A stretch of 64,000 bases of DNA from the NCBI GenBank assembly GCA_051294905.1, contig CM119372.1, positions 35,094,001 through 35,158,000 of the forward strand, written 5' to 3'. Source of the stretch: Botryllus schlosseri (Eukaryota). The position numbers and the translations under genes were made by a program. Below are positions 23,195-59,070 of the stretch, piece after piece. Below the pieces are notes generated by a model, which was not told where the DNA came from, searched no databases, and was given only the letters and a program-made list of their open reading frames with translations. Positions within the stretch are counted from its first letter, which is position 1; each line of letters begins with the position of its first letter.

Positions 23195-23674
23195 ATGGAT
23201 AATATAGGACTAAACTTTTTACTGTGGAATTGTAGAGGATTATATAGGAAGCATCACGAACTAAAACACCTTCTCACGACTCTGGAACGGGCTCCAGATG
23301 CGATAATTCTCCAGGAAACACACCTTATCGAAAAATAGGCCTACTCTCCGAAATTTCCAGGATATCACTGTCACAGAAAGGACAAATCCCCTCATTCCGG
23401 TGGATTGGCGATCTTTGTTAAATCTTCACATAACTCCAGCATCGAAGCAGATGCTACAACCGACATCGAAGTACTTTGTGTGAAGCTTCATGGCCTATCA
23501 TTGTACAATGTGTACATCCCACCCGACTGCCGCTTACGCGACAGTGATGCGAGCATTTTCGAGACGTTACCGCCAAAATCCATTGTCTCTGGCGACTTCA
23601 ATGCACATCATTGGTCGTGGAGTTACAAAACGAACCAACGAGGGACTAAACTTTTTAATGTCATCGATCACGCA
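23195..23674 (+). pseudogene. LINE ORF2, 5' part (APE endonuclease)
   Basis: LLWNCRG, LQET, GGLAIFV, NVYIPP, GDFNAHH motifs; in-frame TAG at 23336; broken at ...VIDHA by the palindromic insertion. Confidence 0.92.
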
Positions 23675-24851
23675 AGTAGTAGTAGAGAAATGGTGGATAT
23701 AGGCGCATATCGTCTTTTAACTTAAAGAAACCAACTTCTCTAATATAATAAAGAAACAAAGGATAACCGACTTACGCATTTTGCAGAATTGCAGTGGGTA
23801 GTTCCCCCCGTGACGGATTGCTGCAGAGATTTGATCAATAATTTCTGTGGCTGAAGGTGTGATGTCGCTACGGCTAGTGATTTTCGGTTCAAATGAGGGT
23901 GATATATGTGTATTTTTGGTATCATTTTCAAGGCTGCTTGCAAAATTACGTCACTCACTATCGGGCGATGAGTGGATTCCTAAATTAGAAGTGGTCCTGC
24001 CTGGCGATTTAAAACTCGGCTGACCTATCACGTCGATCAATGATTTCCGGTTCAATTGAATACGGGTGCCATCTGCGTATAATGAAAAGTCGTTCGTGTT
24101 GAATAAAGTTTTATTATTAAACGAGTTTTCTCAAGGTTATTGTAATCTTTGCTGTAATTTTCCGTGTATGGCGATCGAATCTTTCTGGATCTCTACGGTG
24201 TGTAACCCGACGACACGGAAAAGTTCGCCTGGCGTGACTCGGCGTGTAATGGCGGGTTTGATTGACTGATGATGACAACTTATGCTATGTTTCAAGCGTA
24301 TGGTCAAGGTCACACGAATCGATGTAAAGTCCCGCTTGGTTGAATTGTCGTTCTTCGATGGGGGTGGGGGACAGTTGGTTGTTTTTAAAGGCTACATTCA
24401 AAACTACTACCGTAACCCGCTGTCAGTCAGGCGCAGAGACGCGCGGACGTATAGATTTGGTATTATGAAACCATCCTGCTCCTGTTTATATTTTAAAACT
24501 CAACTGGCGTATGATTTCTCTTGGATCTCTCGATCGATGATATCCGGTTCAATCGAGTGTGACTGCAAGCTATCTGTGTGGTGCATGTGTTATCAAATCA
24601 AACTCGTTTGTGTCATTGAGTCCATGGTATATCACATTGATATGATTTTAAGCATACAGTTTTGAATAATCATATGGCGTTCGATTGCTGCTACTTGCTA
24701 GCCGCCATGTTCAAGCGGTTGTTGACGTCGTCCAAAGCTACTTGCTGCATCTCAGGACAGTAGATGGCGTATGTGCCAGCAGCGAGCCTCGTATACGGTA
24801 CAAACGAACGTCAATTAGCATGGAAAAGCAACGCATTGGAGGATCTTTACC

Positions 24852-25458
24852 GGATTATTTTTGGATTTACGTTTATCCGGACCCGGATTTGTGGATTTTA
24901 CATGCTACTCGCCAAATAATTTCGCTGGCAAATGATGTCCATTGTCCATGAATCAGCCGTGGTCGATCAAGCGTGATGCGATGATGTCAGTCGGAGTTCA
25001 AAATACTCGTTTGTATCAATTACATCAAAGTAGTCATTTTTCTTCTGACTCGTGACTCTTGCAACGATCTGGTTCCTGTATCGAGAACTACGATACTCGA
25101 TTCCATTGTACGCCGACGAATCGGGGCTCGTATACTATACATATACGCGTGAATTCGGATTGGAGTACAGCGTATTGGATGATTTTTACTGGATTACATT
25201 TGGATTTACGCTTATCCGGACCCAGATGTTTTAAATTTTACATGCTACTGGTGGATTAATTGCGCTAGCAAGTGATGGCCATAAATCAGCCGTGATCGAT
25301 CTAGCGTGATACGATGATGTCAGTCGGGGTTTAAAATACTTGTTTGGATTAATTATATCAACGTAGTCATTTTCTTCTGACTCGTGACTCTTCCGTCGAT
25401 GTGGTTCCTGTATTGAGAACTATACGATACTCGATTCCATTGTACGCTGACGTATCGG
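24852..25458. repeat. Diverged tandem duplication (~270-bp block, ~340-bp period) inside the arm; mirrored at 35630-36236
   Basis: tggatttacg-ttatccggaccc...cgatactcgattccattgtacgc-gacg-atcgg at 24852-25124 and 25191-25458. Confidence 0.85.
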
Positions 25459-26541
25459 AAAAGTTCGCCTCGTTTCGTAGGATACTGGTGGAATGGCTTA
25501 ATTTCGCTGAATATGAGTTTGGGAATATTTGGCGTTATATTCGAGTGATAAAAAAAAAACTTATCTCTAGGCAAATAGACGTACTTGCTGATTGATTATA
25601 GCCTGCGACCCAAATTCCCATTGTCTCTGTCCACAATCGCTTGTGAAGTGGTGCAATGAATCGGTGATCCGGCTCCTATTTTTCATATAATCCGTGTAAG
25701 CGACGCCTTCTAGAAGCTCAGAAGTGGGCAGTTTTACAAGTCGGTAGCTAAGGGACACAAATGACGAAAATCATCCTGGTGTAAATGACCGTATTAGTAG
25801 TCTACAAGCCCCATGAATATCACAAACAACGAATCAAACTCTACCCGCCATGCTATCAACTGCAGTGGGACGTATTTTCAATATATTGAGATATGTAAAT
25901 TTCATTCCTAATATTTTCAATCTTGCAAGCGAACCATCTTTTAAGGCGGCAATAATACAAGATTTGTCGTTATCGGCTAACGCTCTCAAGGGCGATTTGG
26001 TGTATGGAAATGTGAATATTGATTACGACGGTGCGATCTTGGACGGTTCGCCGCGGTAAACAATCCTTCATATCAGGAAACAATCATGCGCAGTCTGAAA
26101 ATATAGTCGAACATTCGTACCATGCTACAACACCAAGCACAAAGCGTTATTGGAAACAATTGCGATGAAGCAGCGATCGACATGCATTGTACAAAGACAT
26201 AACAATAGTCACGCACACATACACACTAGAATACTAGTCAGATTATCGGACCACGACCTAACATATCGATCTGGCTTTCCGCCCCATGCCACCTCATTTT
26301 GTCGCTTTCCTTTCATATTCTTTGCTTTAGTTTTCATTCGGTGTGCATTCCTCTTTTCTACTTTACCTATGCCAAGGTGGGTGTCTGATTTCAATGACTA
26401 CTCCAAGCTCCAACTCGTTTCGACACCTTATGTCTTTCATTGTATCGCAGTTTTGTATAGTGTTTTGAAACGATGAAAATATTAATAAACTGACAATGAT
26501 ACACTAAATTCTCCCAAGAACAGCTACAATACAGTAACGGT

Positions 26542-27690
26542 CAGAGGTGGTCAGTAACGAAGTACTTCTACTTTTGGAAGTACTCAAGTAGTTCTGCTCT
26601 ACTTCTGGTACTTACTCAAGTAGATATGATTTTCTCTACTTCTATTTTGACTTCGTAATATTTTGTGATCTACTTACTTACTTTTCGCTATTTTCAGTTT
26701 ATCAAGTAGAAGTAGTTTTATCCCCCAATACGAAAGCTAGCCTGAGGAGTTTCGGGGCTGTTTTCACGGAGCAACAAGATTTAATATTTATAAAAGTCAA
26801 GTAAAGCCCAGAAATTTTGTTGCGCTTCGCGCATAGTAGTGATGAAGTGACAAATATGTTTTGATGAAAGTATCAGTGAATATAATTTAGACACCGGATT
26901 GTTTGGTTCCTATCACACCGCATTGTCGCCCATATCAAATATTTCATCACAGTAAATATGGCCCACCATAACGTTTAAAACTACCGATTCGCAATCTAGC
27001 AATTACCTATGTTAATCTGGAAAATCCAGCTTTTTTGAACGTTACACCTGATTTAGCAGATCACCTTTGAAGTTTTATGGACAAAAGACATGCAATATAT
27101 TTTCCGATTTTAAGAAGTGGTATTTGTATTTCAATGCAAGTATCATACTTTAAGTTCGAATTACTTTTAGTTCTTTTGTCTGCAGAAGATACATGTTGAA
27201 GCATATAAGCAAGTGTAGTAATGCCTCTATTTTCCGAAAATAAAGCTACACTAAATATAACTTTAACGATCCACAATATTTGTTATTACCGTATACTAAT
27301 CACGTAAAAGTGATGAAACCGTATCCGATACAACTTCCACGTGTTGCTGTTCGCCTAAACTTGGGGCCTTATAATATAAGGCAGGGCGCCATGCCATGAT
27401 ATTCTCTAAAAACGGGGTCTTCTAGTAAACAAAGTGTTAGTGTCGCCTTTTCATATCAATACTATAAATTGCATGCCCATGATGCGAAACAATGCTTATT
27501 CTGTCGGGAATTGATACCACCCATGATGCATTAATACGAATCAAGCTCTCTGCCCCTGCCGCATAGCTCGATTCGCAGATTTTGACAGTCCATGCGAACA
27601 GATTAAGACTGTTTTCAAAACTACTTACTTACTTGAGTAGATGTAAAATCAGTCAATTCTACTTCCACTTCAAGTAGTTTTAGGGGATCA
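26542..27690. mobile_element. Host-type non-autonomous DNA element inside the arm (mirrored at 33398-34546)
   Basis: Starts cagaggtggtcagtaacgaagtac; clustered tactt/aagtag subterminal repeats at 26560-26715 and 27620-27680; right terminus not found. Confidence 0.55.
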
Positions 27691-28706
27691 TTTTCGTTGA
27701 GCATTAAAATACGGTCTCTTGCAGAGCGTGACGGTCAAAAAAAAATGTGTGTCTCAAATATTCAGCGGAAGCCGCCGTGCATTATTATACGAGACTCTTA
27801 TATATGGCTTGGAATACAGCACCGATGCCTTGCAATTCAGAGGCTGGTGTATCGAGAGCGTCCATGGCAGTTGATCGAATAACCATATGAGAAGATGGTC
27901 AAATCTGATTGTTTACCTCTCTATTATAAATATTCTATTTCGGAGTGTTTCCTTGTATATTCCCGAAAGCGACGACATAGAGCCGATTATTACTGATCTC
28001 CCGATGTGAGAATGAAACTCGTGAAAAGAAGCTTGTGATCTATAATGGATTACAGAATATTCCGATGTCAACGCTGACGTTCGTGAAAATGGTGCGATTC
28101 GTTATAGTTCTGATCTTGTGTGACTACCCCAAACAGTAGATTCTCGACTATAAAACGTTTGTGTAGCTATAATTCGTATCCAAGTTGTTGAACTAAGACA
28201 TATGACGGTAGAATCGAATGCCATACATAAAAACTTATTCAAATACCCATACTAAGAGTGAGCATTACAACGTTGAGTCACTTGAAAAGTTGTCGTGGTA
28301 GCAGAATATTGTTTATGAATCGATATGGCCAGTAACAGTTGCATTGTTCGCACATTTAATGCTATTTATCGATATCGGATCTCCTTATGAAATATCAGTG
28401 TGATAACCAAGTGCGTGCCAACTGCTCTTTGTCGATGGAAATAAACACCTGTCTCCCATATTGCTGTCTGAAAACAATCTGTTTTCATGCAATACGCATA
28501 TTTGCAAGGCAAGTCCTGCTAATTATGTTGTCCGTTCGTTTTTGTATTGACATTAAGTGTCTTGTATCGCTCCTTTGGCGATGGTAATTTGCTGGAAAAA
28601 GTCAGCACCTAAGATTAAAAATTACCCAGAGAACGAGCTCTGTCTTCGTGACCTTTCAATATTCACCTATGGTTTTGAATTCAGAGCAAATGACATTATT
28701 GTTGCC

Positions 28707-30192
28707 AATATGTGAATTGCTATCGAAGATTCGTAGTAATGGTTTTGTGTGTTTTTAGGATGATATATTTCTCAAATAGTTTCCCAAAATGAGAGACTGT
28801 TATGGAAAAACACCTCGATCCGGATCCGCCAGTACAAGGATGTGTAAATATCGCGTCGGGCTCTCACCGCTCCGAATTATATAGACTCGCAACGTTCGCC
28901 AGGTTTTCGAGATTATCATACCCAAAACGTGCAGATTTAGCATCTGACGGATATTACTGGCTAGGGTTCGAAGACAAAATTAAATGTTTCGGATGCAGTA
29001 TTTCACTCGAAAAATGGGTTGAAAAGGATTCGAATGTAAGTTGTCATGAAGCGAGTTGTGTTCGACACGTATTCAATATTCCCGTTGAAAGATCGAACTT
29101 CAGGAGTCTATTACGGGAGTTTAAGCTCCAAATCGAGACACCGCAAGTCAATAACAGCGACATAAAACTTGCGAATATCATTGACCGAGAACACGCGTGT
29201 TTGATTAAGAACCTCGACTTGAAAAGGGAATCGAAGCGACGCGAAACCTTCAAGAAATGGCCCAGCTATCCAATACCCCACGCAGTAGGCGAGTTGGCGA
29301 AACAAGGGTTTTCCTATCTCGGTAACTTAGACAGAACGCAGTGCTTTAGCTGCTTCGGTGTTCTTCGCAACTGGAAACCCATAGACGACGTATCGGAAAT
29401 ACACCTTACACATTTTCCAAAATGTACTTTCGCGCGTGGTAGCTTTTCAGGAAATATCGCACTAGCTGAGCACGACCGCGGGAATTTGGACGACTTGCTT
29501 CACGAGAAAATACGACGGCTCACTATCAATGTGAAAGAACCAGATGAGCCCTCCGAGGATGAAAAACACTATCTTGCTGAACTATTCCCTTGCCTAAACC
29601 CCGCGAATCCTGTATAGTCGTCCTTGTCACGAAGAATAGCAACCTTCGACGAAGGTTGGGATCCCGCTAAAATCAATGCTAGCGTTGAGCAACTAGCAAA
29701 TGCGGGGTTTTATTACATCGATTCGGACAAGACAAAATCTTTTTACTGCAATGGTGGACTTCGGTGGGACCGGACAGACGAGGTTTGGACGGAACATGCT
29801 AAATGGTTTCCGCAATGCGAGTACGTACTTCGTATGAAAGGTGTCGAATTCGGGCGACGCATCGAAAACACATATCCAAATCTCAATCTTCCGATTATTA
29901 TAAACCCCATCACGAAGTTGGAGTTGACTAAACGCCAAAATGTTCTGCGGAATCGTCAATCAAACGATGGATCACCGTTGAATTGCATCGAAAATGGGAG
30001 AGGCCGTGACGTGTAAACGATGTGAAATAAACATAAATGAATATGACTATAGCATGTGGACATCTTTGCATTGTTTCTAGACTTGTGGGACTGACGTAGA
30101 ACGCAGTGGTGGCAGTCATGAAGTACTTCTATTTTTTCTCAGAATTGTGGTAGGTTTTAATATGTGAATTGCTATCGAAGATTCGTAGTAAT
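28707..30192 (+). repeat. 34-bp perfect direct repeats bracketing the IAP gene (28707-28740 and 30159-30192)
   Basis: aatatgtgaattgctatcgaagattcgtagtaat at both positions; mirrored in the right arm. Confidence 0.95.
28802..30110 (+). pseudogene. Intronless inhibitor-of-apoptosis (IAP/BIRC) gene: BIR1-BIR2 ORF (271 aa), in-frame stop, BIR3, frameshifted RING remnant
   Basis: BIR motifs RLATF..LASDGYY..KCFGC..H...C; RRETF..LAKQGF..QCFSC..H..HFPKC; RIATF..LANAGFYY..SFYC..EHAKWFPQC. ORFs 28802-29617 and 29624-30016 share a frame and are separated by one TAG. TCKRC (30009-30023) and ACGHLC (30052-30069) lie in shifted frames. Confidence 0.92.
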
Positions 30193-30687
30193 AGTTCTGT
30201 AGAATTTTGGTTCAACCTAGAAAAAGTTCTTATGCAGACGTATTATATACCGTTGGAAAGATAATTTTATCAGCTTTTCAATGATGGGTTTTGTCATTTT
30301 TTTACCTTGGGGAAAAAAGTTATGACCAAAAACGTGCCAGGGGATGAAGCACGATTTTGCCTAACATTATAATACAATTATAAGCTAAAATACGATGGAA
30401 ACGATACCTTAATAACAGAATACAACATTATAAATTGGAACATTACTATCAGCAAAGCAAACTAACAATCGGACAGCAAAAAAAAATGAAACATAACTTT
30501 ATTAAGAAGTATTTATCATACGTTTAAGGGGTAAAAGTTGACCGATACGGAGATAATAGGCGAGATTTCATCGAAACAAAGGGTTTTTCTTCTATAAGCA
30601 AGGTCATGGTTAAACCAAGTATAAAGATGTAAAAACGATATCTACAGGTTTTACCTAATTACACTACATACTCAAGTGCCTTGTGTT

Positions 30688-30766
30688 GGACTACTTCTAT
30701 TTCTATCAGTTTTACTACCAGTTAGAATGTCCCGTCTAATCCAACTGATAGAAATAGAAGTAGTCC
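30688..30766. repeat. Hairpin in the spacer: 24-bp perfect stem, 31-nt loop
   Basis: ggactacttctatttctatcagtt (30688-30711) / aactgatagaaatagaagtagtcc (30743-30766). Confidence 0.95.
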
Positions 30767-30774
30767 CCAAGTAG

Positions 30775-33700
30775 TCCCCAAGGTAAAAAAATGACAAAAC
30801 CCATCATTGAAAAGCTGATAAAATTATCTTTCCAACGGTATATAATACGTCTGCATAAGAACTTTTTCTAGGTTGAACCAAAATTCTACAGAACTATTAC
30901 TACGAATCTTCGATAGCAATTCACATATTAAAACCTACCACAATTCTGAGAAAAAATAGAAGTACTTCATGACTGCCACCACTGCGTTCTACGTCAGTCC
31001 CACAAGTCTAGAAACAATGCAAAGATGTCCACATGCTATAGTCATATTCATTTATGTTTATTTCACATCGTTTACACGTCACGGCCTCTCCCATTTTCGA
31101 TGCAATTCAACGGTGATCCATCGTTTGATTGACGATTCCGCAGAACATTTTGGCGTTTAGTCAACTCCAACTTCGTGATGGGGTTTATAATAATCGGAAG
31201 ATTGAGATTTGGATATGTGTTTTCGATGCGTCGCCCGAATTCGACACCTTTCATACGAAGTACGTACTCGCATTGCGGAAACCATTTAGCATGTTCCGTC
31301 CAAACCTCGTCTGTCCGGTCCCACCGAAGTCCACCATTGCAGTAAAAAGATTTTGTCTTGTCCGAATCGATGTAATAAAACCCCGCATTTGCTAGTTGCT
31401 CAACGCTAGCATTGATTTTAGCGGGATCCCAACCTTCGTCGAAGGTTGCTATTCTTCGTGACAAGGACGACTATACAGGATTCGCGGGGTTTAGGCAAGG
31501 GAATAGTTCAGCAAGATAGTGTTTTTCATCCTCGGAGGGCTCATCTGGTTCTTTCACATTGATAGTGAGCCGTCGTATTTTCTCGTGAAGCAAGTCGTCC
31601 AAATTCCCGCGGTCGTGCTCAGCTAGTGCGATATTTCCTGAAAAGCTACCACGCGCGAAAGTACATTTTGGAAAATGTGTAAGGTGTATTTCCGATACGT
31701 CGTCTATGGGTTTCCAGTTGCGAAGAACACCGAAGCAGCTAAAGCACTGCGTTCTGTCTAAGTTACCGAGATAGGAAAACCCTTGTTTCGCCAACTCGCC
31801 TACTGCGTGGGGTATTGGATAGCTGGGCCATTTCTTGAAGGTTTCGCGTCGCTTCGATTCCCTTTTCAAGTCGAGGTTCTTAATCAAACACGCGTGTTCT
31901 CGGTCAATGATATTCGCAAGTTTTATGTCGCTGTTATTGACTTGCGGTGTCTCGATTTGGAGCTTAAACTCCCGTAATAGACTCCTGAAGTTCGATCTTT
32001 CAACGGGAATATTGAATACGTGTCGAACACAACTCGCTTCATGACAACTTACATTCGAATCCTTTTCAACCCATTTTTCGAGTGAAATACTGCATCCGAA
32101 ACATTTAATTTTGTCTTCGAACCCTAGCCAGTAATATCCGTCAGATGCTAAATCTGCACGTTTTGGGTATGATAATCTCGAAAACCTGGCGAACGTTGCG
32201 AGTCTATATAATTCGGAGCGGTGAGAGCCCGACGCGATATTTACACATCCTTGTACTGGCGGATCCGGATCGAGGTGTTTTTCCATAACAGTCTCTCATT
32301 TTGGGAAACTATTTGAGAAATATATCATCCTAAAAACACACAAAACCATTACTACGAATCTTCGATAGCAATTCACATATTGGCAACAATAATGTCATTT
32401 GCTCTGAATTCAAAACCATAGGTGAATATTGAAAGGTCACGAAGACAGAGCTCGTTCTCTGGGTAATTTTTAATCTTAGGTGCTGACTTTTTCCAGCAAA
32501 TTACCATCGCCAAAGGAGCGATACAAGACACTTAATGTCAATACAAAAACGAACGGACAACATAATTAGCAGGACTTGCCTTGCAAATATGCGTATTGCA
32601 TGAAAACAGATTGTTTTCAGACAGCAATATGGGAGACAGGTGTTTATTTCCATCGACAAAGAGCAGTTGGCACGCACTTGGTTATCACACTGATATTTCA
32701 TAAGGAGATCCGATATCGATAAATAGCATTAAATGTGCGAACAATGCAACTGTTACTGGCCATATCGATTCATAAACAATATTCTGCTACCACGACAACT
32801 TTTCAAGTGACTCAACGTTGTAATGCTCACTCTTAGTATGGGTATTTGAATAAGTTTTTATGTATGGCATTCGATTCTACCGTCATATGTCTTAGTTCAA
32901 CAACTTGGATACGAATTATAGCTACACAAACGTTTTATAGTCGAGAATCTACTGTTTGGGGTAGTCACACAAGATCAGAACTATAACGAATCGCACCATT
33001 TTCACGAACGTCAGCGTTGACATCGGAATATTCTGTAATCCATTATAGATCACAAGCTTCTTTTCACGAGTTTCATTCTCACATCGGGAGATCAGTAATA
33101 ATCGGCTCTATGTCGTCGCTTTCGGGAATATACAAGGAAACACTCCGAAATAGAATATTTATAATAGAGAGGTAAACAATCAGATTTGACCATCTTCTCA
33201 TATGGTTATTCGATCAACTGCCATGGACGCTCTCGATACACCAGCCTCTGAATTGCAAGGCATCGGTGCTGTATTCCAAGCCATATATAAGATTCTCGTA
33301 TAATAATGCACGGCGGTTTCCGCTGAATATTTGAGACACACATTTTTTTTTGACCGTCACGCTCTGCAAGAGACCGTATTTTAATGCTCAACGAAAATGA
33401 TCCCCTAAAACTACTTGAAGTGGAAGTAGAATTGACTGATTTTACATCTACTCAAGTAAGTAAGTAGTTTTGAAAACAGTCTTAATCTGTTCGCATGGAC
33501 TGTCAAAATCTGCGAATCGAGCTATGCGGCAGGGGCAGAGAGCTTGATTCGTATTAATGCATCATGGGTGGTATCAATTCCCGACAGAATAAGCATTGTT
33601 TCGCATCATGGGCATGCAATTTATAGTATTGATATGAAAAGGCGACACTAACACTTTGTTTACTAGAAGACCCCGTTTTTAGAGAATATCATGGCATGGC

Positions 33701-36700
33701 GCCCTGCCTTATATTATAAGGCCCCAAGTTTAGGCGAACAGCAACACGTGGAAGTTGTATCGGATACGGTTTCATCACTTTTACGTGATTAGTATACGGT
33801 AATAACAAATATTGTGGATCGTTAAAGTTATATTTAGTGTAGCTTTATTTTCGGAAAATAGAGGCATTACTACACTTGCTTATATGCTTCAACATGTATC
33901 TTCTGCAGACAAAAGAACTAAAAGTAATTCGAACTTAAAGTATGATACTTGCATTGAAATACAAATACCACTTCTTAAAATCGGAAAATATATTGCATGT
34001 CTTTTGTCCATAAAACTTCAAAGGTGATCTGCTAAATCAGGTGTAACGTTCAAAAAAGCTGGATTTTCCAGATTAACATAGGTAATTGCTAGATTGCGAA
34101 TCGGTAGTTTTAAACGTTATGGTGGGCCATATTTACTGTGATGAAATATTTGATATGGGCGACAATGCGGTGTGATAGGAACCAAACAATCCGGTGTCTA
34201 AATTATATTCACTGATACTTTCATCAAAACATATTTGTCACTTCATCACTACTATGCGCGAAGCGCAACAAAATTTCTGGGCTTTACTTGACTTTTATAA
34301 ATATTAAATCTTGTTGCTCCGTGAAAACAGCCCCGAAACTCCTCAGGCTAGCTTTCGTATTGGGGGATAAAACTACTTCTACTTGATAAACTGAAAATAG
34401 CGAAAAGTAAGTAAGTAGATCACAAAATATTACGAAGTCAAAATAGAAGTAGAGAAAATCATATCTACTTGAGTAAGTACCAGAAGTAGAGCAGAACTAC
34501 TTGAGTACTTCCAAAAGTAGAAGTACTTCGTTACTGACCACCTCTGACCGTTACTGTATTGTAGCTGTTCTTGGGAGAATTTAGTGTATCATTGTCAGTT
34601 TATTAATATTTTCATCGTTTCAAAACACTATACAAAACTGCGATACAATGAAAGACATAAGGTGTCGAAACGAGTTGGAGCTTGGAGTAGTCATTGAAAT
34701 CAGACACCCACCTTGGCATAGGTAAAGTAGAAAAGAGGAATGCACACCGAATGAAAACTAAAGCAAAGAATATGAAAGGAAAGCGACAAAATGAGGTGGC
34801 ATGGGGCGGAAAGCCAGATCGATATGTTAGGTCGTGGTCCGATACTCTGACTAGTATTCTAGTGTGTATGTGTGCGTGACTATTGTTATGTCTTTGTACA
34901 ATGCATGTCGATCGCTGCTTCATCGCAATTGTTTCCAATAACGCTTTGTGCTTGGTGTTGTAGCATGGTACGAATGTTCGACTATATTTTCAGACTGCGC
35001 ATGATTGTTTCCTGATATGAAGGATTGTTTACCGCGGCGAACCGTCCAAGATCGCACCGTCGTAATCAATATTCACATTTCCATACACCAAATCGCCCTT
35101 GAGAGCGTTAGCCGATAACGACAAATCTTGTATTATTGCCGCCTTAAAAGATGGTTCGCTTGCAAGATTGAAAATATTAGGAATGAAATTTACATATCTC
35201 AATATATTGAAAATACGTCCTACTGCAGTTGATAGCATGGCGGGTAGAGTTTGATTCGTTGTTTGTGATATTCATGGGGCTTGTAGACTACTAATACGGT
35301 CATTTACACCAGGATGATTTTCGTCATTTGTGTCCCTTAGCTACCGACTTGTAGCACTTCCCACTTCTGAGCTTCTAGAAGGCGTCGCTTTTACGGATTA
35401 TATGAAAAATAGGAGCCGGATCACCGATTCATTGCACCACTTCACAAGCGATTGTGGACAGAGACAATGGGAATTTGGGTCGCAGGCTATAATCAATCAG
35501 CAAGTACGTCTATTTGCCTAGAGATAAGTTTTTTTTTTATCACTCGAATATAACGCCAAATATTCCCAAACTCATATTCAGCGAAATTAAGCCATTCCAC
35601 CAGTATCCTACGAAACGAGGCGAACTTTTCCGATACGTCAGCGTACAATGGAATCGAGTATCGTATAGTTCTCAATACAGGAACCACATCGACGGAAGAG
35701 TCACGAGTCAGAAGAAAATGACTACGTTGATATAATTAATCCAAACAAGTATTTTAAACCCCGACTGACATCATCGTATCACGCTAGATCGATCACGGCT
35801 GATTTATGGCCATCACTTGCTAGCGCAATTAATCCACCAGTAGCATGTAAAATTTAAAACATCTGGGTCCGGATAAGCGTAAATCCAAATGTAATCCAGT
35901 AAAAATCATCCAATACGCTGTACTCCAATCCGAATTCACGCGTATATGTATAGTATACGAGCCCCGATTCGTCGGCGTACAATGGAATCGAGTATCGTAG
36001 TTCTCGATACAGGAACCAGATCGTTGCAAGAGTCACGAGTAAGAAGAAAAATGACTACTTTGATGTAATTGATACAAACGAGTATTTTGAACTCCGACTG
36101 ACATCATCGCATCACGCTTGATCGACCACGGCTGATTCATGGACAATGGACATCATTTGCCAGCGAAATTATTTGGCGAGTAGCATGTAAAATCCACAAA
36201 TCCGGGTCCGGATAAACGTAAATCCAAAAATAATCCGGTAAAGATCCTCCAATGCGTTGCTTTTCCATGCAAATTGACGTTCGTTTGTACCGTATACGAG
36301 GCTCGCTGCTGGCACATACGCCATCTACTGTCCTGAGCTGCGGCAAGTAGCTTTGGACGACGTCAACAACCGCTTGAACATGGCGGCTAGCAAGTAGCAG
36401 CAATCGAACGCCATATGATTATTCAAAACTGTATGCTTACAATCATATCAATGTGATATACCATGGACTCAATGACACAAACGAGTTTGATTTGATAACA
36501 CATGCACCACACAGATAGCTTGCAGTCACACTCGATTGAACCGGAAATCATCGATCGAGAGATCCAAGAGAAATCATACGCCAGTTGAGTTTTAAAATAT
36601 AAACAGGAGCAGGATGGTTTCATAATACCAAATCTATACGTCCGCGCGTCTCTGCGCCTGACTGACAGCGGGTTACGGTAGTAGTTTTGAATGTAGCCTT

Positions 36701-37410
36701 TAAAAACAACCAACTGTCCCCCACCCCCATCCAAGAACGACAATTCAACCAAGCGGGACTTTACATCGATTCGTGTGACCTTGACCATACGCTTGAAACA
36801 TAGCATAAGTTGTCATCATCAGTCAATCAAACCCGCCATTACACGCCGAGTCACGCCAGGCGAACTTTTCCGTGTCGTCGGGTTACACACCGTGGAGATC
36901 CAGAAAGATTCGATCGTCATACACGGAAAATTACAGCAAAGATTACAATAACCTTGAGAAAACTCGTTTAATATTAAAACTTTATTCAACACGAACGACT
37001 TTTCATTATACGCAGATGGCACCCGTATTCAATTGAACCGGAAATCATTGATCGACGTGATAGGTCAGCCGAGTTTTAAATCGCCAGGCAGGACCACTTC
37101 TAATTTAGGAATCCACTCATCGCCCGATAGTGAGTGACGTAATTTTGCAAGCAGCCTTGAAAATGATACCAAAAATACACATATATCACCCTCATTTGAA
37201 CCGAAAATCACTAGCCGTAGCGACATCACACCTTCAGCCACAGAAATTATTGATCAAATCTCTGCAGCAATCCGTCACGGGGGGAACTACCCACTGCAAT
37301 TCTGCAAAATGCGTAAGTCGGTTATCCTTTGTTTCTTTATTATATTAGAGAAGTTGGTTTCTTTAAGTTAAAAGACGATATGCGCCTATATCCACCATTT
37401 CTCTACTACT
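30775..37410 (-). repeat. Right inverted arm (6,636 bp)
   Basis: Reverse complement of the left arm; scattered substitutions, no net indel. Confidence 0.97.
30978..32286 (-). pseudogene. Mirror copy of the IAP gene in the right arm
   Basis: ORFs 31471-32286 and 31072-31464 translate identically to the left copy, including the same internal stop. Confidence 0.92.
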
Positions 37411-40400
37411 CACGCAAACTTAGTCATGTTGAACTCTTCAACTACAACACATATCAATCTCGCGAACAATGCTGTCAATCGTTGGTCGTTGCTAGATTTA
37501 ACACTCGCTACTCAAGATATAGCCGCGAGATGCCAAACTGAAATATCTTTGTCGCTGCTAGGAAGTGATCATTTCGTAGTATTCATGAAGTATATGACAA
37601 ACTCGGCGATATCTTCTTTTTATCGACCACCATCGTGGTCTCTCGAGAAAGCAAATTGGAAGAAGTTTTCTCGAATTGAAGATGAAATGATCGATTTGTC
37701 CGATCAACGAGAAGTGGAGTCTGCAAATACTATTCTAACAAAATGCATAAAGACAGCAGCGAATCGATCAATACCAAAGACAAAGAATATGGACAAGAAA
37801 TCTGTCCCTTGGTGGAGTCCCAAATGTGAGAGAATGATTCGGAGGAAGAGAGCAGCATATTTACGAATGAAGCGCACATTTGATATAATAGACGCTATAA
37901 ACTTCAAAAAAGTCAGGTCCGCATGCAGAAGAACTATACTCGAAGCAAAACGTCTTTGCTGGGAGTCTTTCTGTTCTTCGCTGAATAATAAATCACGTTT
38001 AAATCGCGTATGGCGGGTTATTTGTAGCATTCCTGGTACAACAGCGCATCAGCAAATTCCTGATATCCGAGTAAATGGAATAGATCACACCGAAGACACG
38101 TCAAAAGCTGAAATAATAGGCGAGCACTTCGCTACCATAAGCAGATCCGATAACTACGCTTCAAATTTCCTCCTTTCCAATTGTAAACCTGACCAGCATA
38201 TTACATCGTGTCTACCTTTCAATGTGAATCTGGAAGAACCAATCAATTTGCCGTTTCAGATGTCGGAACTTGGGGAGGCACTACAGAGTCGGAAGATCTC
38301 TTGTCCTGGGCATGATTCCATAAATTATCAAATGCTGCAAAATCTTTCGGCGTCAGCCCAGACCGAACTTCTTAAGCTATATAACATTTCACGAAGAGAT
38401 GGAAAATTACCTAAATCCTGGAAAAATGCTGTCGTCGTTCCTATCCTAAAACCACAAAAGGATCCTTCTGAAGCGGGATCGTATCGACCCATCTCATTGT
38501 CCAGCCATCTTTGTAAGGTTATGGAAGTGATGATAGTAAATAGACTTCAGTGGTTTCTTGAGACGAACAATCTTCTTCATCACTCCCAGTCTGTTTTCGG
38601 CACGATCGCAGTACCCTAGACCATATACTTCGCCTACATGACACCATATATAAGGCACTGAACAATCAGAGATCAGTAGTTGCAGTTTTTCTCGACATCG
38701 AAAATGCCTACGATATGGTATGGCGAAATGGTTTGCTCTATAAATTGTCTGCCCTCGGCGTACATGGGAGGATGCTGAAATGGATATCAGATTTTCTTCG
38801 TGACAGATCGTTCTCGGTTCGCATTGGTTCTTCGCTATCCACCCCATTTCAACTTGAAAATGGTCTTCGGCAAGGAAGCGTTATAAGCCCCATCCTCTTT
38901 GCAGTGATGATAAATTATTTGGCGCCCTTATTACAGGTGGGAAATGTTCTTTTTGCTGACGACTGTGCAGTATGGGACAGTGAGTTGTCAATAACTAACG
39001 CAGTAGCGGAAGTTCAAAAATCATTAGACGTGATACACAAATGGTGCTCCGAGTGAGTTTTCAAGATCTCTACTGACAAGTCAATTGCAGTAATATTCAC
39101 CAGAAAAATTAGAGTTGGTCATCATACGCTAGATTTCGGTGGAGCTCCGTTAAGATTTGAAGAAAAAGCGAAGTATTTAGGAGTCACATTTGATAGAAGA
39201 CTAACATACAAATATCACATTGAAAATATTGCCTCGAAATGCACGAAGCGGTTGAATATGATACGACTCCTAACCGGTACTTCTTGGGGGGCAAGTCGAT
39301 CTTCTTTGTTACAATTGTATCGAGCGATGATTAGGAGTACAATCGATTACGCGATGCCAGCATACTTTTTTGCCGCGAAGAAACATTTGAATAGACTGAA
39401 TATAATACATAATCAAGCCCTGAGGCTCTGTTGCGGTGCAATGCGAAGCACTCCGATTTGCGCTTTAGACGCCGAATGTAACGAGATGCCGCTTCACACC
39501 CGGCATTTACACCTCTGCCTTAATTATCGCTATTTTCTTCTGGCCCATTCCGCAAACAACAATCCAGCAAACGAATTATTAGATGATACCTGGCATGAAA
39601 TATACAGTTTGACAAATCCAAAATTTCGAACCTTCAGCCTTTTATCAAAAATCGACTTGCCCCAACATTTCACAATAGATACGTATCGACACACAACTGT
39701 GCAACCATGGAAAATTCCTGTTCCCTGCGTAGATTTTCATCTACTGCATTTCAAGCGGTCTAATACCTCGTTTGAACAGTTACGTTCGGATTCCATTTCA
39801 TATATAACAGAAAAATACATTGGATACGACCATATTTCTACGGATGGTTAAAAAAACGACTTTGGAACAGGATGTGCAGCGTATATCCCAAACCACGTGT
39901 CGATAACCAAACGATGTTCCTTCTATTCGTCAAGCTTCACAGCTGAACTACCTGCTATCTCCGAGGCACTGAAGTATAGATTTTAGAAAACGGTTCGTAT
40001 GTCAAGAAATGTCGGACAGTTGCAGTGCATTGCAGCATCTACAAAAAGCGCGTTTCCGAACGATGAGTAAGTTATCAAATGAAATTTCAACTAATCTACT
40101 TGAGCTTGAATTCCAAAAAACACATATTATCTTCGTTTGGATACCAGCACACGTCGATATTAAAGGCAACGAGACAGCAGACCAAGTGGCAAAGTCCGTA
40201 GCAACGTCATCTGAAGGGCGGAATCCTACAAATACGGTTTTGACAAGGCATGAAGCTAAGCAAGTCATACTGAAATATTGCAAGCAAATTTGGAACCAAC
40301 ATTACCTCGAAGAAGATCAAGGCTCTCATTTCAAACTTTTCGTGAATCCCTTCATCATAGTACACCACCTCTTGAAAATCGCATTAGTGACCGAATATTA

Positions 40401-57909: not shown

Positions 57910-58755
57910 TCACTTTACGCGGTCGCCGTACCATTCCGGACACTTTCTAACCCTATTAGATCGGCGCGGAATTGGCGTATGCGACGAATTGCCCTTCAAT
58001 AACGAAGTCTCATTCTCGGGCTCTTTATCATCCAACGCCTCGGCACGATCATTCGGTGTCGGAATGATTTCAGTCCTGGAACCGGCTCTCGCTTCCGGTT
58101 TCTCCACATCGATGGTGGTAGGGTTCGGAGCCAAGTCTCTCACAGACACGGTGGACTCTCTTCCATCTTCGTAGCGTATTAACGCGTACTTAGGATTCAC
58201 ATCAAGCAGCTCGACCGGGTCGCAAAGCGGTTCAGACTTCGAAGATCGATGGAAACGTCGTAACAGTACAGAGTCGGCGAAAAGTAACCAATCAGGAATC
58301 GAGGGTCCAATCATCGAGCGTCTAGGAAAACCAAAAAATCGTTCATGTGGTGTTACGTTTGTAGCTGTACAAAGCAGCGATCGCACGCTATGTAGCGCAT
58401 CATTCAACACCATTTCCCACGCAGATTCCGGCAGCCGCTCCGTAGCAAGAATCAATTTGATGGTTCTCCAAATCGTTTGGTTGACGCGATCACACTGAGA
58501 ATTACCCGTAGGATGATACGGAGTAGACCTGCTAGTAGCGACAGCACGTTTGGTTACAAACGTAATCAAATCTCTGGAGATAAAAGAGTTTCCTCTATCG
58601 CTATGGATATATTCGGGAACTCCTACGAGCGAAAACAGCGTCTTCAAATTGCGCATCACGGTTGGAGTAGACATATCACGACACGGAAAAACAAAAGGAA
58701 ATCGACTGTATTCATTCACAACAATCAATAAAAACCTGTTTCTCCCAGACACGGG
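57910..58755 (-). pseudogene. LTR-retrotransposon (Gypsy-like) integrase, core and C-terminus, 5'-truncated
   Basis: LLIVVNEYSRF, GVPEYIHSDRG, STPYHPTGNSQCDRVNQTI, TPHERFFG, RRSNR..K.P; integrase is at the 3' end of pol; the frame is cut at 58755/58756. Confidence 0.92.
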
Positions 58756-58792
58756 AGTAGTATAGTCGCTCGCTCGCATGACGCAATGGGGC

Positions 58793-59070
58793 TCTTATGG
58801 GCGGGGTGGTGACGCGCCTGAAAATCGGGGGTGGTGATGCGCCTTTTTAGACCCCCCTTGCGGCGGTGATGCGCCATGTGTTCTTATGGGTGCGGTCGTG
58901 ATTCGCCTTTTCGGCTATAGGCTGCGGCGGTGACGCGCCAGAAAACCCGGGGTGGTGACTCGCCTTTTTTGCTATAGGTGGTGGCGGTGAGTCGTATTTC
59001 ATGTATTCTTACGGGTTCTGTGGTGATTCACCGTGTGTTCTTATGGGCGGGGTCGTGATTCGCACTTTCG
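58793..59070. repeat. GC-rich degenerate array: 9 copies of GGTGA(c/t)(g/t)CGCC-like motif, 121-bp higher-order period
   Basis: Copies start at 58808, 58833, 58865, 58897, 58929, 58954, 58986, 59022, 59054. Confidence 0.9.

Follow-up and report, generated by a model that had tools for sequence, protein, structure and literature searches.

What kind of element is a 13.7-kb palindrome whose only recognisable gene encodes an inhibitor of apoptosis (IAP), and how could it have moved? We address this question for a locus of Botryllus schlosseri, in a 64,000-nucleotide stretch of assembly GCA_051294905.1 (contig CM119372.1, positions 35,094,001 to 35,158,000 of the forward strand), hereafter called the window. 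Our analysis makes it probable that the element is a decayed copy from a family of non-autonomous, palindromic Maverick/Polinton derivatives with anti-apoptosis cargo.

The element, its ends and its centre

The palindrome occupies positions 23675-37410 of the window (13,736 bp). An initial annotation, made from the sequence alone, had described two 6,636-bp inverted arms around a 461-bp spacer, AGTAGT...ACTACT termini and an exact CACGCA target duplication, and our measurements agree with all of this. Direct comparison of the arms (23678-30313 and 30775-37410, with 461 nt between them) gave 19 mismatches and no indels, or 99.71% identity. The element starts with (AGT)3AG and ends with CT(ACT)2, the left end having an extra AGT unit (23675-23677) compared with the right. 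No other large inverted repeat is found in the window, the sole other pair measuring 205 nt at 73% identity. Excision of the element together with one CACGCA places the open reading frame (ORF) at 23339-23674 in frame with those at 37372-38619 and 38562-39053. The second ORF (ORF2) of a host long interspersed nuclear element (LINE) is thus rejoined from its endonuclease part (PF14529) to its RVT_1 ORFs, as had also been proposed.

The IAP, present once per arm, was likewise recovered as the only recognisable gene. Among 32 ORFs of at least 60 aa in the left arm and spacer, the only Pfam matches were two IAP pieces, to the BIR domain, and none was to polymerase, integrase, ATPase, protease or capsid families. 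A tblastn search of the element with the ORFs of a Polinton resident in the same genome returned nothing below E 0.006; the capsid and protease of that Polinton go unrecognised by Pfam, and their absence from the element leans on this tblastn search. Rfam gave no match in the arm at E≤0.1 and none in the whole window at gathering score, and Tandem Repeats Finder reported no tandem arrays in the arms, each of which holds one ~335-bp repeat pair only. The features of the locus are as follows (window coordinates).

23339-23668, forward: host LINE ORF2, endonuclease part, broken by the insertion (PF14529, 2.9e-10)
23669-23674, unstranded: left copy of the target-site duplication, CACGCA, read from the sequence; exact 6-bp duplications flank 6 of 8 family copies
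23675-23685, forward: left terminus, (AGT)3 then AG, matching the published Maverick end-motif and the resident Polinton ends
23678-30711, forward: left arm as before its partner's deletion, 7,034 nt; 23678-30313 is still paired
24788-25458, forward: tandem pair of ~335-bp direct repeats, ~81% alike (1114-1450 and 1453-1784 in arm coordinates), with a mirror pair in the right arm
26348-27871, unstranded: very high-copy dispersed repeats in the left arm (summed word depth in the thousands in three sequencing runs, against tens elsewhere)
28802-30016, forward: left-arm IAP, 404 codons, three BIR domains and no RING; stop at codon 272 (29615-29617), first zinc-ligand Cys of BIR3 substituted (codon 313)
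30152-30653, forward: 486-bp dispersed-repeat insertion (30160-30645) with 8-bp direct repeats (30152-30159 and 30646-30653); contig joint 30151>30646
30688-30711, forward: inner stem, left side, 24 nt; a contig of run X13 has an opposite-strand joint 30687>30766
30712-30742, unstranded: central non-palindromic loop, 31 nt, conserved between family copies
30743-30766, reverse: inner stem, right side, 24 nt
30767-30782, unstranded: right-arm deletion junction, located in an 11-nt tandem duplication; 374 nt, the mirror of 30314-30687, are absent
30775-37410, reverse: right arm, 6,636 nt, ending in (ACT)2
31072-32286, reverse: right-arm IAP with the same stop (31471-31473 by mirror arithmetic); C2:35125075-35126286(-), one TAG
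37411-37416, unstranded: right copy of the target-site duplication, CACGCA
37417-39053, forward: host LINE ORF2, in-frame continuation, reverse-transcriptase part (RVT_1)

The true symmetry axis lies inside the 461-bp spacer, where inner stems of 24 nt border a 31-nt loop on either side. The arms of the closest relative both reach a 32-nt loop and both match the left arm of the window element through the spacer, so the ancestral arms were ~7,034 nt long around a 31-nt loop. Beyond the right stem, 8 nt of filler lead directly to the mirror of position 30313, and therefore the right arm has lost the mirror of 30314-30687. The spacer is thus secondary, the result of a 374-bp deletion in the right arm, which keeps a 154-nt remnant of the 486-bp repeat at 30775-30928. 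A contig from a sequencing run under another species label shows an opposite-strand joint at the axis.

An ACTACT/AGTAGT pair (30690-30695 and 30759-30764) stands 16 nt either side of the loop. We considered it as a mark of two abutting elements and set this idea aside, as the neighbouring sequence is unlike the outer ends and a related palindrome family with Bcl-2 cargo, described below, has no such pair; chance is likely, at ~1 in 100 by our own arithmetic. Elsewhere in the window, a local G+C peak is found at 58001-59000 (0.50 versus ~0.38 around it).

A family of palindromes with arms that evolve in concert

The initial annotation had suggested looking for other copies with the terminal 500 bp. 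A search of the 495.5-Mb assembly, whose contigs we designate C2, C3, C4 and so on, with the terminal 501 bp gave at least 56 matches (84 candidates, 40 of them scored), and those listed include 14 inverted pairs 11-29 kb apart, plus singles. Eight of the 14 pairs constitute our family sample; the other six, more distant, are known from their coordinates alone, which place their ends 13.9-15.3 kb apart. The eight copies lie at as many loci on six contigs; each of them aligns with the window arm in both orientations and is a palindrome, as measured by half-against-half alignment. Four of them have a 31-32-nt loop, with total lengths of 12,681 bp (arms 6,325), 14,112 (7,040), 14,355 (7,167) and 14,795 (7,382) and 2-13 mismatches between arms. 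Enlarged centres are present in two, namely the window copy and a copy of 13,658 bp whose arms stand 624 nt apart; another copy, C4_13.1M, is split by a nested element, and the last is rearranged. The non-nested copies measure 12.7-14.8 kb and C4_13.1M 13.4 kb without its guest. No transposase ORF was found in any arm.

These copies have their own target duplications, which are exact over 6 bp in six of the eight, agree at five of six positions in a seventh and are lacking in the rearranged one. The comparison rules out a 7-bp reading of the flanks (CACGCAA), and the earlier preference for 6 bp was therefore sound. The window element is one decayed copy of a palindromic family with at least 14 paired-end loci.

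We asked how the arms of one copy relate to each other and to those of other copies by aligning the inner 2.5 kb of 12 arms from seven copies, skipping eight partial BLAST pieces. In 10 of 10 cases the nearest neighbour of an arm was its own partner, at a distance of 0-0.12% versus at least 1.05% to the next copy. Within this region, 13-40 copy-private changes are present in both arms of a copy, and 0-3 differences separate them. The 486-bp dispersed repeat (332 first-look candidates in the genome, with solo copies elsewhere) forms a mirror pair in three other fold-backs at different loci and, in the window, a whole copy plus the remnant; hence an insertion that took place in the chromosome spread to the opposite arm before the lineage transposed anew. 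Within each copy, the arms thus evolve in concert.

Since they were last identical, the window arms have gained ~10 and ~9 private derived changes, respectively. Differences between arms become rarer towards the axis, with 58, 22 and 5 in the outer, middle and inner thirds of the four copies having at least nine differences. In the window the corresponding counts are 16, 3 and 0, and the inner 2,518 nt contain none. This gradient, together with the axis-adjacent deletions seen in two copies, fits breakage at the palindrome centre and repair from the other arm.

A quite different explanation would be a fold-back artefact of assembly or sequencing, or an inverted duplication that arose in place after a 7-kb insertion. 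Chimeric reads do give near-identical arms, and transitions and transversions among arm differences stand at 55:57 over all fold-backs compared, an unusual ratio that could include assembly error. Nevertheless, the same architecture recurs at the eight loci on six contigs, where the duplication of each copy flanks the whole palindrome (exact 6 bp in 6/8), and the 31-nt loop is conserved between copies. The private derived changes in both arms of the window element, the asymmetric deletion and the nested insertion, each in a single arm, and the axis joint found in the contig under another species label all speak against an artefact too. We therefore regard this explanation as extremely unlikely.

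Polinton ends and two sister families

Vertebrate Mavericks have been reported to bear the end-motifs (AG)3//(CT)3 and (AGT)2//(ACT)2 and perfect 6-bp duplications (Barreat and Katzourakis, PMC8097293), and the window element has both of these cis features. A resident counterpart exists in the same genome. The Polinton at C3:9620390-9637770 is 17,381 bp long, with a terminal inverted repeat (TIR) of ~655 bp and the duplication GTGGTT, and its ends open with the 10-mer AGTAGTATAG, which is identical in the family copy C4_13.1M and agrees at 9 of 10 positions with the window element. The Maverick-type signature read from the ends and duplication thus finds support in both the published motif and a resident Polinton. 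As to whether Polinton genes accompany the same ends, a further proposal of the initial annotation, the first 10 nt are shared with a gene-bearing Polinton but an extended TIR is not.

This Polinton encodes an integrase with rve and chromodomain matches (2.4e-16) and a P-loop ATPase, the Pox_A32 match of which falls below cut-off here and above it in the second and third Polinton lineages described below. Its 1,212-aa polymerase has a weak PF03175 match (E 0.057), and 25 of its 30 Atlas neighbours are PF03175 clusters (score 0.95); the half of the Polinton with this presumed protein-primed family B polymerase (pPolB) found nothing in PDB sequences or PHROGs. A genome search for PF03175 gave none at E≤0.001 and nine weak candidates at E≤10, of which the fifth listed led to the real Polinton.

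The best of these candidates was set aside as a Polinton. It is an intronless 1,075-aa ORF (C5:11747082-11750306, reverse strand) with the architecture of DNA polymerase delta (DNA_pol_B, 1e-157, an exonuclease domain and a C4 zinc finger), which has distant intronless paralogues on C11 (32%) and C16 (28%) and may have arisen as a retrogene or come from a virus.

Matches to the resident integrase number at least 113 (993 candidates), and among those listed 101 of 113 are free of stops, so potential helpers are plentiful. They fall into three lineages, at 82-100%, ~67% and ~53% identity. In a lineage-2 copy (C13:17132001-17141000) the polymerase frame is divided between two ORFs (602 and 703 aa). 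A lineage-3 Polinton has, at its right end (C8:25662001-25671000), a Bcl-2 gene (181-aa ORF) and a single-BIR gene (211 aa) between an A32-type ATPase and the (ACT)2 terminus. An apparently autonomous Polinton thus carries an anti-apoptosis module.

Direct evidence that such palindromes can be made from Polinton ends comes from two sister fold-back families. The 400-bp end of the C3 Polinton has at least 68 matches (2,059 candidates), many of them in inverted pairs 13-14 kb apart. One such fold-back, C6:24570924-24584289, measures 13,366 bp, with arms of 6,534 nt that differ by three substitutions, ~339 nt between them and the duplication TACTTC. The outer 1,431 bp of both its arms are 94.7% identical to the right end of the C3 Polinton, a shared end that extends well beyond the TIR and includes a 217-aa ORF (96% at the amino-acid level).

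The second sister family was found nested in one arm of C4_13.1M (C4:13109574-13139190), where a fold-back of 15,629 bp at about C4:13115579-13131207 has arms of 7,799 nt (99.5% identical), a 33-nt loop, the duplication CGCGAA and a Bcl-2-family ORF in each arm, one with a stop. From the terminus to the Bcl-2 gene, its arm is colinear with the lineage-3 Polinton right end (72-84% nucleotide identity; z=34 for the terminal alignment), and the two Bcl-2 proteins are 80% identical. Genome-wide, this Bcl-2 has at least 150 matches (420 candidates), mostly in inverted pairs; among the matches listed, 138 of 150 are stop-free.

By these alignments, the two sister families are demonstrably copies of one Polinton end. 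At 13.4 and 15.6 kb, they resemble the family with the IAP in architecture (arms of 6.5-7.8 kb), size, end motif and 6-bp duplication, and all three families reach 73-90% of the 17.4-kb Polinton. The Bcl-2 sister family is also like the IAP family in having an apoptosis inhibitor in each arm. They differ in that the arms of the sister families hold recognisable Polinton end sequence, whereas those of the IAP family do not. The proposal that the palindrome arose by copying one Maverick end into two thus stands for the two sister families, while at the window locus itself the palindrome was not made but inherited as the architecture of its family.

One may ask, then, whether the IAP family could be a fold-back transposon of another superfamily (FB-like, Galileo/P-like, IS3EU or Dada) with AGTAGT ends by coincidence. 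Long inverted arms with internal tandem repeats do resemble those described for FB/Galileo elements (PMC3573991), and no Polinton sequence extends beyond 10 nt in the IAP family. However, the exact 6-bp duplications of 6/8 copies and the terminal 10-mer, identical to that of the resident Polinton, both point away from such superfamilies. Target duplications are 9 bp for FB and 7 bp for Galileo, and the arms of both are largely tandem repeats. Moreover, two fold-back families alike in architecture, size and loop length hold real Polinton end sequence, one such Polinton-derived fold-back is nested in an IAP-family copy, and no arm encodes a transposase. These findings make another superfamily very unlikely.

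Cargo, mechanism and known systems

The uninterrupted IAP ORF of the family has three BIR matches (2.7e-50) and the zinc-binding Cys/His pattern expected of them. No RING domain was found in this 404-aa ORF; its nearest cellular relatives carry PF13920. The gene is oriented towards the palindrome axis. In the window, its frame is stopped after BIR2, and both copies are without the first zinc-ligand cysteine of BIR3. Codon 272 is a sense codon in other family copies and in contigs of three other runs. The window copy thus shows functional loss, with a stop and a zinc-ligand substitution in both IAPs as well as the 374-bp axis-adjacent deletion.

The comparison of IAP sequences took in 13 arms from seven copies, with the rearranged copy and a split arm set apart. 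Two copies retain an uninterrupted frame in both arms, and the other five have their own private lesions, "private" being meant relative to the eight sampled copies only. In all three copies where both arms could be compared for them (the window copy, C5_14.9M and C9), the private lesions are present in both arms. All 21 pairwise comparisons of copies gave dN/dS values of 0.07-0.50. Eight synonymous and two non-synonymous changes separate the two uninterrupted copies, a split expected about once in 10,000 under neutrality by our own binomial arithmetic. Altogether, the IAP has evolved under purifying selection in the lineage and is broken in the window copy.

Genome-wide, the IAP has at least 105 matches (447 candidates). 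Among those listed, 78 of 105 are stop-free, and they include, at a minimum, 16 convergent pairs at 90-100% and 24 divergent pairs at 68-73%. The latter belong to a second IAP family (68-73% aa identity to the fold-back IAP, ORFs of 382-394 aa, mostly stop-free), the genes of which diverge at distances of 3.6-14.5 kb, mostly 4.5-7 kb (e.g. C11:11042239-11048948). Probably these pairs represent a further fold-back family in which the gene points the other way. The nearest database proteins to the IAP are cellular ascidian IAPs with RING, at no more than 46% identity. In addition, BIR plus RING proteins of Endozoicomonas (P0012 and P0100), a genus of bacterial symbionts of ascidians, match the IAP at 32-35% over ~90% of its length, which by sequence comparison points to an animal-to-bacterium gene transfer.

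Could these palindromes instead have mainly a host role, either as a source of hairpin RNA (siRNA or piRNA) silencing Polintons or as a means of amplifying IAP and Bcl-2, with mobility incidental? Convergent identical genes over a 31-nt loop would give double-stranded RNA on read-through, the Polinton-ended sister family has 1.4 kb of Polinton sequence in both arms, and the nearest relatives of the IAP are cellular ascidian proteins. Yet the IAP arms are unlike Polinton interiors and so would be unable to target them. The dozens of copies scattered over the genome, each with a duplication of its own, and the purifying selection that acts from copy to copy and not at a single locus are in line with selection on a lineage that replicates, and many copies, that of the window included, are decaying. 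Accordingly, we consider a main host role very improbable, a silencing function being conceivable for the Polinton-ended family and at odds with arms that lack Polinton sequence.

Returning to the Maverick/Polinton derivation, we propose the following mechanism. The element would keep only the cis signals at its ends, and would be integrated in trans by the rve-type integrase of a Polinton and probably copied by the helper's protein-primed polymerase from the (AGT)n termini. One end of an element would have been copied back on itself, giving the palindrome, which would therefore have two identical, integrase-competent ends on one molecule. For the IAP family itself, we infer this copy-back origin by analogy with the sister families. 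In adenovirus, protein-primed replication is initiated by jumping back, with slippage in the terminal repeat, and the extra AGT unit at one end of the window element would be expected from such slippage, a small clue. Two processes may renew the symmetry of the arms, namely repeated fold-back of a self-complementary strand during replication and chromosomal arm-to-arm gene conversion, more frequent near the axis. The initial annotation had envisaged helper-dependent integration at roughly normal Maverick size; helpers are indeed present, but 13.7 kb is 79% of the resident Polinton and does not equal it. The RING-less three-BIR IAP, or Bcl-2 in the sister family, may block apoptosis of the cell in which helper and passenger replicate, and this would explain the selection keeping the IAP in the lineage.

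Several points weigh against this reading. The arms of the IAP family gave no blastn or tblastn match to the lineage-1 Polinton and no blastn match to the lineage-3 end or the internal part of lineage 2. Over nucleotides 11-150, three family termini compared with the lineage-1 and lineage-3 ends and two sister ends align as expected by chance (z -2.0 to 1.8). Thus, extended terminal sequence shared with an autonomous partner is found in the two sister families and not in the IAP family. Lineage 3 entered this search through one of its ends and lineage 2 through an internal part, and the Polintons of the genome are far from fully catalogued; the IAP family's own parent is either unsampled or lost. 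The assignment of pPolB to the helper draws on a weak Pfam match and on Atlas. Gene conversion in the chromosome could account for all of the concerted evolution of the arms, which would then be uninformative on replication. RNA evidence is thin: the sequencing runs listed as containing the sequence include no RNA data set, and in one single-cell run (3% read) a few sense reads cover the two ends of the IAP, 5' and 3', all with variants of other copies. Finally, trans-mobilisation, protein-primed copying and a free or packaged form are steps that we infer.

A bolder form of the proposal, which we put forward tentatively and think less likely to be right than wrong, is that the palindromes are true satellite viruses of Mavericks, i.e. 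self-complementary half-genomes that are capsid-limited and helper-dependent. A unit of ~7 kb, made of one Polinton end and an apoptosis inhibitor, would be doubled to a hairpin-palindrome of ~14 kb, gaining two integrase-competent, protein-primable ends and a length that the helper capsid could package. The 12.7-15.6 kb range of three families with unrelated arms would then be the footprint of the capsid limit, and the renewed symmetry of the arms that of snap-back single-strand replication. The IAP or Bcl-2 would keep the co-infected cell alive, so that the helper, too, may profit from the satellite. A packaging limit is hinted at mainly by the similar length that three families reach with unrelated arm sequences; we know of no such length floor for ordinary non-autonomous transposons.

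Mavericks are widely held to be viruses, and to our knowledge their replication, packaging and helper-dependence have hardly been observed in animals. The genome analysed here contains hundreds of gene-poor, Maverick-ended palindromes with a narrow length range, identical arms and selected apoptosis inhibitors, beside many Mavericks with an uninterrupted integrase, some of which carry Bcl-2 and BIR genes. If the palindromes are satellites, the genome would record capsid-limited, helper-dependent Maverick transmission in an animal. What the genome contains also leads one to predict insertion polymorphism, copies protected from nuclease, and unintegrated DNA with a terminal protein, as palindromes of 14 kb or hairpins of 7 kb. 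The fold-backs further show how genes that regulate cell death can be multiplied and carried to new places in a genome, and they call for caution in annotation, since in a genome of this kind dozens of genes annotated as "IAP" or "Bcl-2" may be parts of mobile elements.

Among known systems, the element is like Mavericks/Polintons in its end motif, 6-bp duplication, terminal inverted repeats and length, which falls within the 12.7-24.6 kb reported for them. More precisely, the vertebrate survey gives 12,723-24,620 bp for intact elements and TIRs of 46-1,447 bp (PMC8097293), in contrast to inverted repeats that here span the whole length of the element (7.0 kb per arm). The element also has none of the genes that define the group, listed as pPolB, an RVE integrase, an Ulp1-type protease, a packaging ATPase and major and minor capsid proteins (PMC11161782). 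Long, gene-bearing TIRs of ~2 kb and cargo genes are reported for butterfly Polintons (10.1101/2025.02.07.637071). FB and Galileo elements share very long inverted arms, internal tandem repeats and mostly non-autonomous copies (PMC3573991). The element differs from them in duplication length, end motif, mostly unique-sequence arms, 31-nt loop and selected cargo.

Palindromes derived from one genome end are otherwise familiar from viruses, in the snap-back defective genomes of adenovirus, which uses its terminal trinucleotide repeat for jumping-back initiation, in dimers of undersized helper-dependent adenovirus vectors and in self-complementary adeno-associated virus (AAV). Such palindromes are helper-dependent, have a total length near that of the helper genome and are transient products of the laboratory or of infection. 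In contrast, the element described here, known as integrated DNA only, is heritable, diversified into subfamilies and endowed with a selected gene.

In the titles and abstracts that we searched, no palindromic or fold-back Polinton derivative was described, nor one bearing an IAP. An IAP ORF is annotated in an insect adintovirus (10.64898/2026.07.28.741253). What our analysis adds is the selected anti-apoptosis cargo, the one-end origin of two families and the Bcl-2/BIR module in a resident Polinton. With viral apoptosis inhibitors, such as the baculovirus-type IAPs and viral Bcl-2, the fold-backs share a BIR or Bcl-2 protein encoded on a DNA virus-like element. Their IAP differs from those of viruses and adintoviruses in being carried by a passenger without Polinton genes, in two copies, with three BIR domains and no RING.

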